A stretch of DNA of 64,000 nucleotides from a virus: IMG/VR virus record IMGVR_UViG_3300043411_002794, positions 32,001-96,000 of that record. The stretch is one strand, 5' to 3'. Of the stretch, positions 31,988-46,359 are shown one piece after another. The notes beneath the pieces were generated by a model. It had not been told where the DNA came from. It did no database searches and worked only from the letters and a program-made list of their open reading frames with translations. The position numbers and the translations under genes were made by a program. Numbering within the stretch: position 1 is the stretch's first letter; the number at the start of each line of letters is the position of its first letter.

Positions 31988-32138
31988 GCACCAAATTCCA
32001 GTAATGTGTGAACAGGTACTCGCTTGAACCGTACGCGACACCGCGAACAGATCGGGCGAACAGCGCTCCGCACTAACTCTAAAAAGCGACGCGGCCGCAG
32101 ACGCACGTCACGGCCGCAACATTTGCACGCCAGTGTAC

Positions 32139-41123: not shown

Positions 41124-42326
41124 CTAGGTCGCGATGCAGCTGCATTCACAACCGGCACAAACGGATTTCATTTGTAGGTTGAGCTTCGGTAGCGGTTCAC
41201 CCATGTCTTCGGGCGTGAACTGCTCGATGAAGTCGTGCCATTCGGGGATTTCAAGCCCGCCGGCAAACGCCTGCTGATTGTCGATGATCTCCTGCGGCGC
41301 CGTCGCCGTCAGGAGATCGATCTCTTCGGCCGGGAGAAGTTTGTGCTCCCGAATGAACTGGGTCATCATGCCCGGCATCTTCTTGCCGCCGCGATTGCCC
41401 TTGCGGCCGCGACGCCAGAGGCCCAGTACGCCGGTGGCGTTGCGTCCCCGACGCGGCTGCTTGGGAAGTTCCTTTTGGGCCCGCTTGCCGCCGTCGCGCT
41501 TCGGACGGGCGTTCTCCGCGTCGATCTCTTGGCAACGGAGCCGCCACGCGGCGAGCTTCGTCTCATATTGGCGATCGAGCTCGTCTTGCGGGATGTGGCC
41601 TTCGAGCCGCGGGAGCGCCCGGGCCTCCATGATCACGATGTACCGCAGGTAGATCTTCTTGAAGTGCTGCAGCTCTTCCGGCTGCGTAGCCGGGCAGAAG
41701 ATGCATGCCGACTTCACAGGCTGCCCGCCGCTTTCGACCCAGGTCTTACCGGTCCAGTCGGACCAGCCCGGGAGGTTTTCTTTGCGGATCTCGGCGATGC
41801 ATCGCTCTCGATCCCAGCCCCATTCGATGAGCGGGTACCAGTAGTTGTACTTGGGGTCAGTGTCCTGGCCCTTGATCGCTTCGTTATAGCGACGCTGATC
41901 TTTGGGTCCGGCGTCGTAGCCGATGACCTTCGTGACGCGCTGCCCGGCGGCCCAGGCCGCTTGAGCCGTCGCCCATTGCTCGCAGAAGGCATTCTGCGGG
42001 GCGACCTTCCATTTGAGCGAACAGCTTTTGAAACCAAACGCCAGACTCGGCAGCGTGCCGTTGGTGAGGCAGTTCTCGCCGAGGGAGTGATATTTTGGCC
42101 AGTGCATGAAATCTTGCACGACATTTTTAACGACGGTTACAGGTGGAAAACCAACCGATTGCAGCCATCGTTGTGCTACCGGAAGGTAGTCGTATGTTTC
42201 TTGTCGCTCGTTGCCGGTGTCGGCAAATAAAATGAGATCCGGCCGAATGTTCTGGCGGCGAAGTCCGATGATTGCAGCCCAACTGTCAACACCGAGGCCG
42301 TAGGATACAACAAGGGGCTTATGCAC
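41124..42326 (-). CDS. PAPS-reductase-like adenine-nucleotide alpha-hydrolase family protein
   Basis: PP-loop VSYGLGVDS, FADTG.E, CSLKWK, YPLIEWGWDRERC, SACIFCP. Confidence 0.8.
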   Translation of the reverse strand: MHKPLVVSYGLGVDSWAAIIGLRRQNIRPDLILFADTGNERQETYDYLPVAQRWLQSVGFPPVTVVKNVVQDFMHWPKYHSLGENCLTNGTLPSLAFGFKSCSLKWKVAPQNAFCEQWATAQAAWAAGQRVTKVIGYDAGPKDQRRYNEAIKGQDTDPKYNYWYPLIEWGWDRERCIAEIRKENLPGWSDWTGKTWVESGGQPVKSACIFCPATQPEELQHFKKIYLRYIVIMEARALPRLEGHIPQDELDRQYETKLAAWRLRCQEIDAENARPKRDGGKRAQKELPKQPRRGRNATGVLGLWRRGRKGNRGGKKMPGMMTQFIREHKLLPAEEIDLLTATAPQEIIDNQQAFAGGLEIPEWHDFIEQFTPEDMGEPLPKLNLQMKSVCAGCECSCIAT

Positions 42327-42806: not shown

Positions 42807-43310
42807 TCATCTGTTCACGATCTTGGCCAGGAGTTTCTTTTGTTTGTACCAAGCCATTTGTGCGCCTTGGCTTAGACCTTTGGTGGCCCAGTTGCAGTTC
42901 ATGCCGATGGCCGGAATGATCTGCGTTAAGTACTCAGCGTAGGGCTCGCCCATGTGGAGCTCGATAAGAATGTCTTTGAACGCGGCTCCTTCGTGTCCCG
43001 TCCCTTGTGCGTCTCCGTACTTGAGCTTCACCAGCAGGCTCTCGACAACACGAAGCGACCAAAGTGCCCGTTCTCCGGCCGGGGCGCCGACGAGCGTTTT
43101 GTCATACGTCGAGATGTACTGGTCCGGAGACAGCAGTCCGAGTTGTGCAGAGGCAATGTACCACTGATCGCCCGTCGCTTCCGCGTAAGTGCGGCGGGCG
43201 TTGAAGATGCTGCCGGTATAAAGCGAGCGAGCCGTTACGAGGTCGTTGGTTCGTTGCTTTGCCTTCCCGCAGCCGACGATAATTATTCGAGTCGGTGTTT
43301 GGTGTCCCAT
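42807..43310 (-). CDS. DUF6884-like (YaaA-fold) protein
   Basis: IIVGCGKAKQ...ARSLYTGSIF...WYIASAQLGLL; AGGAG RBS. Confidence 0.62.
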   Translation of the reverse strand: MGHQTPTRIIIVGCGKAKQRTNDLVTARSLYTGSIFNARRTYAEATGDQWYIASAQLGLLSPDQYISTYDKTLVGAPAGERALWSLRVVESLLVKLKYGDAQGTGHEGAAFKDILIELHMGEPYAEYLTQIIPAIGMNCNWATKGLSQGAQMAWYKQKKLLAKIVNR

Positions 43311-43323
43311 ATTCTCCTAGTTC

Positions 43324-44550
43324 GTCAGCATTGTCGTAGTCGCAGCCACAGTCGTAACGCAGTCGTTGTCGTCAGCACGGTCGTTGCCGTTGCCAATGCC
43401 GTTGTCATAGTCGAGGTCAGTGTCCGCAGCGTTGCCGCAGTCGTTGTCACAGTCATGAACGAAGCGCCGTCATCGTCATCAGCGTCGTCGTTGTCGACGT
43501 CGTGGTCGGAGCAGATGCCTAAGTCAACGCCGTCAGCAGTGCCGCAGTCGGTGACGAAGTCGCTGCCGGTGTCGTTGCGCTGTCGTGGCCGGAAGCGTCG
43601 TCGATGTCGTTGTCGTTGCGCCGTCAGTGTCGTTGTCGCAAGCGGAGACGTAGTCGTTGTCGCAGCCGTCGTCATTGCCGCTACCGAAGTCGCCAGCGCT
43701 GTCGCTGCCGTAGCCGCTGCCATTGCCGACACGTCGGGGTTGTCGATGTCGCGGGCTGCAGCGTGGTCGTTGCCGGAGTCGATGTCAGAGACGGTGTCGA
43801 TGCCAGTGTCGTGGTCAGATGCAATGTCGCGGACGCAGTCGGAGTCATGGTCGATGCGGCGTCTCAGTCGAAGCCTGCAGCGTAGTCACTGTCGTTGTCG
43901 AGGTCAGGACATTGTCGTTGCCGTTGCCGTGGGCAGAAGCATCGTCAACGTCGAGGTCGTCGTCACTGCGTGGTCGGCAGCGTCGTCGTTGCCGGAGCCA
44001 GTGTCAAAGCCGGAGTCGGTGTCGTCGTCTTTACGCTGTCGTGGGATCAGCAAGGACGGAGTCGGAGCCGGTGACGTAGCCAGAGACGATGTCGCTAGCG
44101 CAGTCGTAGTCAATGCCGATGCATGGACATAGCCAACAGCGTCGTCAAAGTCGCTGCACGGTCTCCGTCGAAGTCATCGTCGAAATCGTTGCCAGTAGCA
44201 TTGTCGTTGCCGCTGCCGTTGTCGGGACGTAGCCGGGGCGTCAGCGCAGTCAATGCCGTTGTCGTCGTCAATGTCACTGCCGGAATCGCCGTCGTTGCCT
44301 CTAGCGTTGCCGCAGTCGTTGCCGCAGCCGGCACGCTGTCTATACCGGAGTCGCAGCCGATAGCGTTGCCGCTGTCGGCGTCATTGCCACAGCCGTCGTC
44401 ATGGTCGTTAGCAGAGTCGTGGTCGCTTGCGTAGTCAGCGTCGTAGGCAGAGCCGTCGCCGATGTCGTTATCGAAGTCAAAGTCACTAGCGTCGTCAGTG
44501 TCGTCGTCGAAGTCGTAGTCACGATCGTTGCCGCTAGCAGTGTCGCTGCC
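43324..44550 (-). ncRNA. Hexamer-periodic array, candidate guide-RNA locus of the adjacent RAMP gene
   Basis: Manual parse of the minus strand gives 192 hexamers (G-N-Y-N-N-Y, mostly GAC/GGC-NNY) plus 15 pentamers = 1227 nt exactly; the register shifts reading frame repeatedly; no RBS/ATG at its start. The periodic repeat is certain; the RNA function is inferred. Confidence 0.65.
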
Positions 44551-44564
44551 GTCGACGGTTCGGG

Positions 44565-45236
44565 TTAAACTTCGGTGCCTTCTTCGACCACGTCGCACGA
44601 AACGACGCGGCCGCGGCCGTACCCCATTTTACGGCACGCGCCGACGCCGACGAAGTAGCAGGCGTAGTCGATCAGGTGCTTCACCGAGTTTTCGTCGTAG
44701 ATCGTCCGCATGATCCCGACGGCGTCGAAGTTGCGGAGCAGTTCGTTGGACTGGAAGCGGCGCTGCCCGCCTTCTTCCGGCTTGACGTACCGCTCGTAGA
44801 TGTCGTCTTTCTCGAACTTGCCCGTTTTGAAGTCGCCCAGCCGCAATTTGCTGCGGAGGTCGTCTTTCGGGAAGCGGCTGCCCGCCGGAGCCGACGTGGT
44901 GGCCTGCACCAGGGCACCCGAGAACTGGTGACGGGGAATGATGATCTCCGTCTTCATGTTGTTCGGGTCGATGCGGTACCACTTGCGCTCCGCGGCCTTG
45001 CAGAGGCGTTCGTATTCGTCTTGCGTAATCCCTTCCTTTTTGAGGTAGGACTGCAGGGCCTGGGCGCGTTTGTCGTCGGAGCGGGCCCGGTTCATGCCGG
45101 ACTTCTTCTGGATGTCGATGACCGAATTGCGTTCCGGCCAATACGGGTCGGCGATGTAGTCGTCGAAGTGGACGACCACCTTGAGAGTCTTGATTTGATC
45201 GAAATCGTTCGGGATCGTGCCTTTGGACTTAGTCAT
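44565..45236 (-). CDS. Stand-alone Cas7/RAMP-superfamily protein (223 aa)
   Basis: IIIPRHQFSGALVQA matches the Cas7/Csm3 IPxxxxxGxl segment; C-terminal G-rich loop VGVGACRKMGYGRGRV; start coupled to upstream ORF (ATGACTAA). Confidence 0.82.
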   Translation of the reverse strand: MTKSKGTIPNDFDQIKTLKVVVHFDDYIADPYWPERNSVIDIQKKSGMNRARSDDKRAQALQSYLKKEGITQDEYERLCKAAERKWYRIDPNNMKTEIIIPRHQFSGALVQATTSAPAGSRFPKDDLRSKLRLGDFKTGKFEKDDIYERYVKPEEGGQRRFQSNELLRNFDAVGIMRTIYDENSVKHLIDYACYFVGVGACRKMGYGRGRVVSCDVVEEGTEV

Positions 45237-45453: not shown

Positions 45454-45950
45454 TACATGTACTCGATGAAGTCGTCAGGTGCGGCACATAATCGCTCGTC
45501 CGCGCCTTCGATACGGATTTCGCTGAAACCGTCATCGATATTCGGTTTGCCGCTGCGAAAGTGGCCGTCTTCGAAACGAAACGGCGCGTGTTCGACCGTG
45601 CCTGTCACGTAGATGACGTTGCAAAGCTGCTTGGTCATGAAGCGATACCGCAGCTCCGTGTTATTGCAACAGGAGAGCGCTACGATTAGGCCGTACTTCT
45701 TTGCGAACTGCTCAGCTTTCTTCGGCACATCTTCCGGCAGAATATGTACGCCGGAGGCGAAGACGTTGATATGGCACGGCTTTCGGTTTTTGAATCCGAC
45801 CCGCACGACGCACGGTGTGCCGTGTTCGTTGGCGTAGCCGACTTGCAGAATGCGACCGAGCAACGGAGGCTGACCTGATCGCTCTACGCAGATTTGATCG
45901 CCCGCTTTACCGTGACCCGCGGGCCACGGACTTTTGCTTTTCTTGGGCAC
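45453..45950 (-). CDS. Hypothetical protein
   Basis: 165-aa ORF in operon. Confidence 0.5.
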   Translation of the reverse strand: MPKKSKSPWPAGHGKAGDQICVERSGQPPLLGRILQVGYANEHGTPCVVRVGFKNRKPCHINVFASGVHILPEDVPKKAEQFAKKYGLIVALSCCNNTELRYRFMTKQLCNVIYVTGTVEHAPFRFEDGHFRSGKPNIDDGFSEIRIEGADERLCAAPDDFIEYM

Positions 45951-46359
45951 GAACCTTCCTAGCTAATGCTTGAGCCATGTTGGTATCGATCACCGCCTCC
46001 CGCCAAGCTCTGCTGGCGACAGGGGTCATCTTCAAATACTTCAACGGGCAGTCGAACCAAATTGGTCCGTCCGCTTCGGTACTTTCGCGTTCGGTCCAGC
46101 ACTTCTCTTTCGAGTCGTACGTGAAGCGAATGACAGAGATAAACGGCCACATGCGTTCTTGGCGGTCGTCCGGGCGGTTATCGACGTACTGCCAGACCGC
46201 CCACACTCGCACGTCGCGTTTGATGTTGCCTCGTACGCATTTGGCCAGCAACTGGATACAGCCGAGCCCACCGCTGCGGGTTGCATGCTGATCTGTCGTT
46301 AATGCGAACTTGAGGCAGTTTTTGAGCGTGTACCCGGACGGGTAACTCGTACTCCCCAT
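45907..46359 (-). CDS. DUF6927-like protein (tentative)
   Basis: ESTEADGPIWFDCPLKYL...WREAV motif. Confidence 0.5.
   Translation of the reverse strand: MGSTSYPSGYTLKNCLKFALTTDQHATRSGGLGCIQLLAKCVRGNIKRDVRVWAVWQYVDNRPDDRQERMWPFISVIRFTYDSKEKCWTERESTEADGPIWFDCPLKYLKMTPVASRAWREAVIDTNMAQALARKVRAQEKQKSVARGSR

Follow-up and report, generated by a model that had tools for sequence, protein, structure and literature searches.

A putative VIPR-like guide array of hexanucleotide and pentanucleotide units beside a lone Cas7-like RAMP gene in a phage genome

The window, as the whole stretch of DNA analysed here is called, comprises 64,000 nucleotides (positions 32,001 to 96,000) of the IMG/VR virus record IMGVR_UViG_3300043411_002794, from a phage genome of 192 kb. 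On its minus strand lies a 1.2-kb tract of short tandem units, which begins about 10 nt past the stop codon of a gene for a lone Cas7-like RAMP protein and runs to the ribosome-binding site of the next gene. It is the sole six-periodic tract in the genome. The original prediction, made from the letters of the window alone, drew attention to register breaks in this tract and proposed that the five-nucleotide units at these breaks are punctuation or a second type of unit that changes the gap length in a code. The two central features, with positions counted from the first letter of the window, are as follows.

43322..44559, minus strand: candidate guide array of 208 units, with 193 hexamers Y-G-x-C-N-N and 15 pentamers
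44565..45236, minus strand: lone Cas7-like RAMP gene, 223 aa, presumed partner of the array (AlphaFold (AF2) model, Foldseek, VIA-align)

The RAMP gene is the only one in the genome, where no cas genes or second RAMP were found. Pfam, PHROG, NCBIfam and PADLOC contain no family for the protein, and tblastn searches of cultured phages with the RAMP, and with the target protein described below, gave no match. RAMP homologues number 65. The AF2 model (pLDDT, the predicted local distance difference test, 91.7) has Cmr4, Csm3, Cas7-11 and type VII Cas7 as its top Foldseek matches, with a probability of 1.0, and reaches Z scores of up to 13.0 in VIA-align (Csm3, Cmr4), where CRISPR RAMPs fill the first 43 rows. 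The C-terminus carries a glycine-rich loop of the form GhGxxxxxGhG.

The tract was parsed in two independent ways, by dynamic programming with unit lengths of 3-9 nt permitted and by a cyclic hidden Markov model with a self-trained position matrix and -1 and +1 slips permitted. Both give 193 hexamers, 15 pentamers and no 7-mers on the minus strand from 44559 to 43322, and the path of the hidden Markov model contains 15 deletions and no insertions. The most informative frame of the unit is Y-G-x-C-N-N. Position 1 is C in 69% and T in 26% (Y in 95%), position 2 is G in 98%, position 4 is C in 83% and T in 16%, and positions 5 and 6 are variable. Position 3 (x) is mixed, with A in 54%, G in 25%, C in 15% and T in 6%, and is the least constrained of the constant letters. 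In this frame, 14 of the 15 pentamers read Y-G-Y-N-N, and six of the 15 form a subclass YGT-NN. The pentamers account for 7% of the units in the array, and the blocks between them consist of 1-37 hexamers, where 1-36 had been given before. The two parses reproduce the 15 breaks of the original prediction, all five-nucleotide units; two of its units, cccac and ttcat, place the same two breaks differently. Its description of the pentamers as starting with G-Y also holds, since in a G-first frame every one of them can be so placed, and none starts with GAC or GGC. If +1 and -1 shifts were equally likely, 15 shifts in the same direction would have, by our own arithmetic, a p of about 3e-5. The pentamers, in their order along the minus strand, are:

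44331..44335, minus strand: CGTGC, both parses
44236..44240, minus strand: CGCCC, both parses
44225..44229, minus strand: CGTCC, both parses; an RNA-library contig ends at its first base
44154..44158, minus strand: TGCAG, both parses
44119..44123, minus strand: TGCAT, both parses
44042..44046, minus strand: TCCCA, both parses; placement ambiguous with the adjoining unit TGCTGA
44031..44035, minus strand: CGTAA, both parses; an RNA-library contig ends at its last base
43966..43970, minus strand: CGCAG, both parses
43907..43911, minus strand: TGTCC, both parses
43854..43858, minus strand: CGCAT, both parses
43729..43733, minus strand: CGTGT, both parses; an RNA-library contig ends at its first base
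43616..43620, minus strand: CGCAA, fifth unit of the 8-unit guide 43598..43644; a hexamer CGACAA in the related arrays L002 and L001
43575..43579, minus strand: CGCAA (second copy), both parses
43462..43466, minus strand: CGCTT, both parses; alternative reading as a YGCT unit with a single N
43355..43359, minus strand: CGTTA, both parses; an RNA-library contig ends at its first base

The frame G-x-C/N-N-Y reads as alternating Asp/Gly-X, and the array of the relative L001 keeps a single frame throughout. The tract could on these grounds be a gene for an Asp/Gly-rich repeat protein that has decayed or been mis-assembled, the pentamers being frameshift lesions or sequencing errors. This explanation, which the original prediction had itself named as its alternative, is extremely improbable. 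Independent assemblies give the same sequence: the stretch is present in runs of at least seven studies (sludge and freshwater), and contigs from two further studies with no connection to the likely source, X11 (activated sludge, 2021) and X14 (sludge, 2024), cover 43513-44317, 43532-43855 and 43928-44607 with no differences and no gaps. Contigs from RNA libraries cover 43359-43559, 43733-44229 and 44284-44460 without change and carry the pentamers unchanged, and therefore the frame is not restored at the RNA level. The third letters of the codon-like triplets also break the codon usage of the genome: purine-ended codons in four-fold families number 6 of 141 in the array, where the usage of the genome itself would give 58 (p 2e-24), and in such families of the phage's own genes purine endings range from 28 to 74%. 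The pyrimidine bias is a nucleotide-level constraint and not amino-acid selection, as had been argued from the rarity of variable triplets ending in a purine (8 of 193; Glu, Lys and Gln codons are absent). The variable triplet ends in Y because it consists of NN and the conserved first pyrimidine of the next unit. Since no stop codon is possible with a pyrimidine at the sixth position, frames of the type G-x-C/N-N-Y are stop-free by construction and an open frame is uninformative about coding. Among the related arrays, whose comparison had been suggested as a check, L001 is pentamer-free and in one frame throughout, but it has an in-frame TAA. Relatives keep Y-G-x-C and vary NN, the 'amino acids' differ by clade (CGCC, TGGC, CGGC), and the array always comes with the RAMP gene, on either side of it. 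With 15 frame breaks and constant letters that differ by clade, the tract has neither the open frame nor the genome-like codon usage nor the amino-acid conservation of a coding gene.

Homologues of the RAMP give 194 matches in metagenome contigs and 25 in viral contigs; the closest homologue is 88% identical. Among 185,579 species genomes, nine carry a homologue; all nine are metagenome-assembled genomes (MAGs), and several of these loci also have arrays. For comparison, 107 homologue loci were fetched (2 from Logan assemblies, 25 from IMG/VR and 80 of the 194 metagenome hits), the window being the 108th; these and further loci are designated here by L and a number. A six-periodic array is present at 92 of the 108 loci, in 90 of these 92 at most 150 nt from the RAMP gene. 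When 126 arrays are classified by side, 57 are adjacent downstream and 44 adjacent upstream of the gene; 11 loci have arrays on both sides, and all arrays run in the sense of the RAMP. Array lengths have a median of 44 units and reach 226. The constant letters are clade-specific (CGCC, CGGC, TGGC, TGRC, YGRC), with the G of position 2 and the C of position 4 general, and NN is almost entirely different between relatives. Clustering of the flanking open reading frames (ORFs) of the 108 loci finds no family shared with the RAMP beyond near-duplicate loci. The three closest genome-borne homologues (L293-L295, 45-48% identity) belong to Planctomycetota MAGs (one lies on a contig of 293 kb), and this may be the host phylum of the phage clade.

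The 129 arrays of the family contain 7075 units: 6926 hexamers, 106 pentamers (1.5% of units), 34 heptamers, 8 octamers and 1 tetramer, totals that include one doubtful array, L097. No register break of any kind occurs in 95 of the 129 arrays, including L001 from a close relative, and the arrays rich in pentamers are those of the window (15 of 208 units), L029 (25 of 224), L002 (8 of 183), L083 (8 of 39) and L037 (7 of 86). In a pool of about 100 pentamers of the family, the first letter is Y in 82%, the second G in 86% and the third C in 80% or T in 14%, followed by N-N, which is a hexamer without position 3. All eight breaks in L002 are pentamers, seven of them Y-G-Y-N-N. The breaks are not random decay, and the proposal of a distinct second type of unit is borne out by this recurrence in L002, an independent relative, and about 100 times across the family. 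The lack of 7-nt units, true of the window array, is not a property of the family, and neither is the restriction to -1 breaks, which the window array has in common with L002. Elsewhere longer breaks recur, such as 8-mers before TGCCAT in L011, 7-mers CGCCCGY in both L025 and L301, and in L061 a module of 37 nt. A repeated module of L068 has the pentamer TGCTT in alternation with the hexamer TGGCTT. The array L301:2139-3783, from an Actinomycetes MAG, is punctuated by 21 of the heptamers CGCCCGY. L061:3649-3953 consists of near-identical 37-nt modules in succession, each of six units and one base, and L029:3668-4993 contains stretches in which five identical units follow one another. Tandem duplication of whole modules or of units, evident in these two, is how arrays grow.

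A lone RAMP beside a non-coding tandem tract recalls VIPR, described in 2026, in which a single RAMP, Vipr, polymerises on an RNA (vrRNA) of GGY/NN pentanucleotide repeats, sequestering the constant letters, while the NN pairs read double-stranded DNA (bioRxiv 10.64898/2026.04.26.720920, 10.64898/2026.04.26.720927). The reading skips every third base of the target, usually the codon wobble, and other repeats (YNNNG, NNNGG, NNNNG) and 'staggered' arrays have been described (bioRxiv 10.64898/2026.04.26.720920). Type II exemplars are those of Escherichia phage SUSP1 and a Pseudomonas fulva prophage (bioRxiv 10.64898/2026.04.26.720920, 10.64898/2026.04.26.720927). Published vrRNAs are about 100 nt long, with 9-16 repeats, and have a conserved structured 3' tail or ribozyme separators; an accessory gene, vap, is 'typically' beside vipr. 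The window locus resembles these systems in being phage-encoded, in its single small RAMP with one RRM core, G-loop and thumb outside any CRISPR-cas locus, and in the adjacent non-coding tract of constant letters and hypervariable NN. The pattern of reading that its units suggest is likewise one that skips one base per unit at the codon wobble of a target in foreign mobile DNA, for one guide and one target family. The pentamers Y-G-Y-N-N, moreover, have the same form as the YNNNG-type unit of VIPR (G, pyrimidine, NN).

The differences are also considerable. The unit of the window array is 6 nt (Y-G-x-C/NN) and not 5 nt (GGY/NN), and the array's 208 units run on without interruption instead of forming discrete vrRNAs of about 100 nt. 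At the array there is no sign of an invariant 3' tail with structure, of a ribozyme or of an Rfam element: an Rfam search at E values up to 1 gives a chance miRNA-like match and nothing at gathering level, and the folding z-score of the array is about 0 on both strands. A scan for sigma-70 promoters finds no sites, and terminator-like sites are at chance level (5 against 4.0 expected), none of them flanking the array. The 108 loci share no conserved accessory (vap) gene, although vap is not strictly defining. The sequence similarity to the Vipr of SUSP1 is marginal, the profile of the RAMP matching chain 36pp_D weakly (E 0.28) over 62 residues that include the G-loop, and the G-loop of Cmr6 scores similarly; in this weak alignment, the GG-reading residues D177 and W178 are tentatively not conserved and R179 is. 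The locus and its relatives are probably a hexanucleotide variant of VIPR, whose published units are pentanucleotides.

In class 1 CRISPR effectors, the Cas7 subunits bind the crRNA in 6-nt steps, as established structures show. The Cas7 backbones of these effectors (Csm3, Cmr4, type VII Cas7 and the Cas7-11 domains) are the best structural matches of the RAMP (Z 10-13). Unlike class 1 CRISPR-Cas systems, the locus has nearby no repeat-spacer array, other cas genes, Cas5, Cas6 or large subunit that could be found, and its guide information is spread over NN pairs and is not a contiguous spacer. An analysis of tandem repeats and ORFs at the locus and its 108 relatives identifies only the RAMP gene and the hexamer array, which places them outside CRISPR.

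The meaning of NN can be approached by comparing related arrays. Nucleotide alignment of the window and L002 arrays was abandoned as misleading, the constant letters dominating it, and alignment of NN alone was used instead. The two arrays, whose RAMPs are 72% identical, then have almost nothing in common except one run of eight units, which scores 16 (8 of 8 NN pairs) against a maximum of 11 in 200 shuffles. L001 has six of the eight NN units.

43598..43644, minus strand: guide module of 8 units, NN = TG AA AC GG AA AA AT GA, with an inferred target
43639-43644 and 43592-43597, minus strand: bounds of the guide, its first unit CGCTTG and the next T-type unit CGCTTC (T-type, T at position 4)

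Across the shared run, all 16 NN letters are the same in the window and L002, while x is a different letter in four units and missing from one; the pentamer CGCAA (43616-43620) of the window aligns with the hexamer CGACAA in both L002 and L001. Another pair of relatives, L011 and L012, has nine of nine NN pairs in common, with different constant parts in seven of the nine. Since these runs were chosen for NN identity, the contrast with the constant letters is biased; the retention of NN while the constant letters change is nonetheless what a code carried by NN would predict. In the latter pair (L011:3441-3958 and L012:3196-3942, on viral contigs of 58-61 kb), L011 has an 8-mer, CGCACCGC, directly after the common 9-unit NN string.

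When the shared guide is written as a pattern with one nucleotide skipped per unit and compared with IMG/VR, 54 matches result, and 25 of these fall in frame in one family of proteins of about 50 aa, where they spell C-N-T-G-N-N-I-E. The 25 contigs are diverse, with G+C fractions of 0.35-0.68 and a mean pairwise nucleotide identity of 0.70. Four control patterns (the same letters with a two-base skip, a shuffled unit order and two other modules of the window) give in IMG/VR largest clusters of 4-7 near-identical contigs and no cluster from a divergent family; the mean nucleotide identity of the clusters is 0.97-1.00 in the three controls for which it was measured. The flanking units of L001 extend the match by three upstream codons (N-T-E) to a perfect run of nine units, L002 extends it by one downstream codon (K), and a further pentamer of L002 matches a Leu codon after two half-mismatches. 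The match keeps the same register for three units past the pentamer 43616-43620. These results support, with moderate confidence, the one-base-skip rule of VIPR at this array, the confidence being moderate because there is one target family and one guide, present in three related arrays. With the same moderate confidence, the pentamer 43616-43620 would contribute its NN and advance the target by 3 nt as a hexamer does; being read like its neighbours, it would therefore not be punctuation. In this one testable case, the proposals that pentamers are guide boundaries or change the gap length both fail, as the pentamer lies inside the matched guide, its relatives have a hexamer there and the target register is unchanged on either side.

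The target proteins (L143:6101-6253 on the minus strand, L154:1077-1235 on the minus strand and 23 other IMG/VR loci within L108-L161) are about 50 aa long and have His/Cys motifs, namely W-H-S, H-H-N-N, C-N-T-G-N-N-I-E and C-x-E-C. No Pfam, PHROG, NCBIfam or PADLOC model exists for them, and at the two loci inspected, L143 and L154, the gene adjoins a similar gene of about 96 aa. Neither the phage's genome nor the related loci carry the target gene. A search with all 9-unit windows, at skips of 0-4, of the own genome and the 107 related loci gives results no different from shuffles, and an 8-unit search in 21 target-bearing loci finds only the known guide above shuffle level.

The guide begins at a hexamer with T at position 4, and the next such T-type unit follows the last matching unit; the L002 copy of the guide likewise begins at a T-type unit. 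The T-type units of the window array are:

43325..44539, minus strand: span of 29 T-type hexamers, 22 of them YGCT-NN, used in the spacing test
Upper coordinates: 44539, 44527, 44491, 44473, 44413, 44365, 44347, 44306, 44288, 44246, 44200, 44188, 44141, 44100, 44052, 43982, 43941, 43882, 43763, 43698, 43686, 43644, 43597, 43538, 43484, 43461, 43431, 43377, 43330

Their spacing in the window is more regular than in permutations (coefficient of variation (CV) 0.51 against 0.88, p 0.0012), with a typical gap of 7-11 units, and is regular also in L002 (p 0.0012), L008 (CV 0.18), L029, L043 and L059. We infer that T-type units are better candidates for module boundaries than the pentamers and that they delimit about 28 guide modules. 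Thirteen of these hold a pentamer, usually one, at the second to sixth unit. Taking the YGT pentamers as extra boundaries was tried and rejected, the module spacing becoming less regular by hand count.

The best overall explanation, and one that we consider somewhat probable, is that the tract serves a VIPR-like system as its guide-RNA array, with the RAMP encoded immediately upstream on the same strand, and that its pentamers are x-less units decoded as hexamers and not boundaries or changes of gap. In this mechanism, one RAMP protomer would bind each unit, holding Y-G-x-C and displaying NN, and the protomers would form a filament. Successive NN pairs would read double-stranded DNA with one target base skipped, usually at the codon wobble, which amounts to 3 nt per unit. 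The pentamers (Y-G-Y/NN) would lack x, still carry NN and make the same 3-nt step on the target. They would most likely have arisen by one-base deletion and been inherited with the modules. Tolerance of no other loss than that of x would account for the -1 direction of all breaks and for their absence from GAC and GGC units. The array would be divided by T-type units (mostly YGCT-NN), one every 7-11 units, into about 28 guide modules.

Several points weigh against this explanation. Transcription, processing and RAMP binding of the array are steps that we infer, and the in-register reading of a pentamer draws on a single case of the YGC type and on sequence conservation. A chance match of the guide to one abundant conserved motif retains some residual probability. 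Exact one-nucleotide-skip scans of IMG/VR, which are uninformative about the targets of the guides concerned, gave one match, not in frame, for the guide common to L011 and L012, none for the guide common to L017-L019, and 26 and 11 matches with no divergent family cluster for two pentamer-bearing modules of the window, which had served as controls. All 15 pentamers lie 1-5 units past the preceding T-type unit (permutation p about 0.001). This clustering may reflect a function, or the duplication of modules that already held a pentamer. The six YGT-NN pentamers could themselves be T-type, and hence boundary, units without x. Finally, four of ten RNA-library contig ends lie in CGT-type pentamers, and a fifth in a T-type hexamer.

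This last point bears on the reading favoured by the original prediction, in which the pentamers, or at least YGT-NN, are punctuation, that is, cut sites of the transcript or ends of RAMP filaments. With pentamers making up 6% of the array, four of ten ends has a binomial p of about 0.002, against one of seven DNA-contig ends in pentamers. However, these contigs also continue across 12 other pentamers. With a depth of 2.5-5, or one or two reads, with only one study behind them and with a possible origin from DNA by carry-over, they cannot establish RNA ends; the cover of the RNA libraries outside the array is absent in X16 and patchy in X15. The link between CGT-type pentamers and contig ends is a lead and a weak hint that YGT-NN may differ in role from YGC-NN. 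Punctuation would also agree with the non-random offset from T-type units, with the position of all four pentamers of L003 directly before an AGCT unit and of all three of L068 in a repeated boundary motif, and with the recurring length variants of other clades (the 7-mers of L301 and L025, the 8-mers of L011, the 37-nt module of L061). It is difficult to reconcile with the pentamer 43616-43620, which lies within a guide matched in one register on both sides and whose NN is kept by the hexamer of the relatives, with the 95 of 129 arrays that have no register break, L001 among them, and with pentamer blocks of 1-37 units as against the regular T-type spacing. On balance we regard punctuation as unlikely, without dismissing it.

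A role of the pentamers in structure or regulation, as a hinge or phase-setter about once per guide or as a frame-breaker that halts translation, appears less likely still. The presence of usually one pentamer at the second to sixth unit of 13 of about 28 modules would suit a hinge, and L029 has a similar clustering, at offsets of 4-6; L002 follows the offset trend of the window, but the permutation tests are not significant in either relative, and clustering can stem from duplicated pentamer-bearing modules, given the tandem duplications in L029 and L061. The frame-breaker would draw on the frames G-x-C/N-N-Y and x-C-N/N-Y-G being stop-free, each -1 shift leading toward the frame with TGA in TGAC units. 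Yet long arrays tolerate zero or one pentamer (L008 with 109 units, L043 with 183, L059 with 125 and L001 with 85), and the homologous guide in L002 and L001 has none. A doubtful proposal, to which we give about the same low credence as to punctuation, is a mixed-length RNA code in which the hexamer is a VIPR pentamer with a bulged, base-unspecific x, YGC-NN being the guide unit and YGT-NN a signal for processing or filament ends. If it were true, unit length would be part of the array grammar and the family would be a natural intermediate between the 5-nt steps of VIPR and the 6-nt steps of CRISPR Cas7.

Of the genes around the locus, the one directly after the array (42807-43310, minus strand) encodes a DUF6884 protein (Pfam E 7e-29; PADLOC PDC-M57A 3.5e-20 and DpdC 6.6e-9), and the next (41124-42326, minus strand) a PAPS-reductase-like protein. 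The two may be a Dpd-like (7-deazaguanine) DNA-modification pair, and neither is conserved with the RAMP at other loci. An upstream gene (45760-46322) has 41 differences over 563 nt from the window in two independent sludge runs in which the array and RAMP gene are identical, suggesting either mosaicism through recombination or that the array is strongly conserved in current strains.

If the array is a VIPR-like guide array whose pentamers are x-less units, a sister family writes the NN code of VIPR in hexanucleotide units, with a 6-nt step that is also that of CRISPR Cas7 backbones. The pentamers would then be a natural experiment, indicating which constant letter is dispensable and that a protomer's step along the RNA can vary while the 3-nt step on the target stays the same. 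These points would inform our view of how RNA is measured by RAMP filaments, the proposal that CRISPR backbones descend from VIPR-like proteins, and the rules by which engineered guides are designed. When genomes are annotated, the kilobase-long 'Asp/Gly-rich pseudo-ORFs' beside small orphan RAMP genes should be treated as guide arrays.

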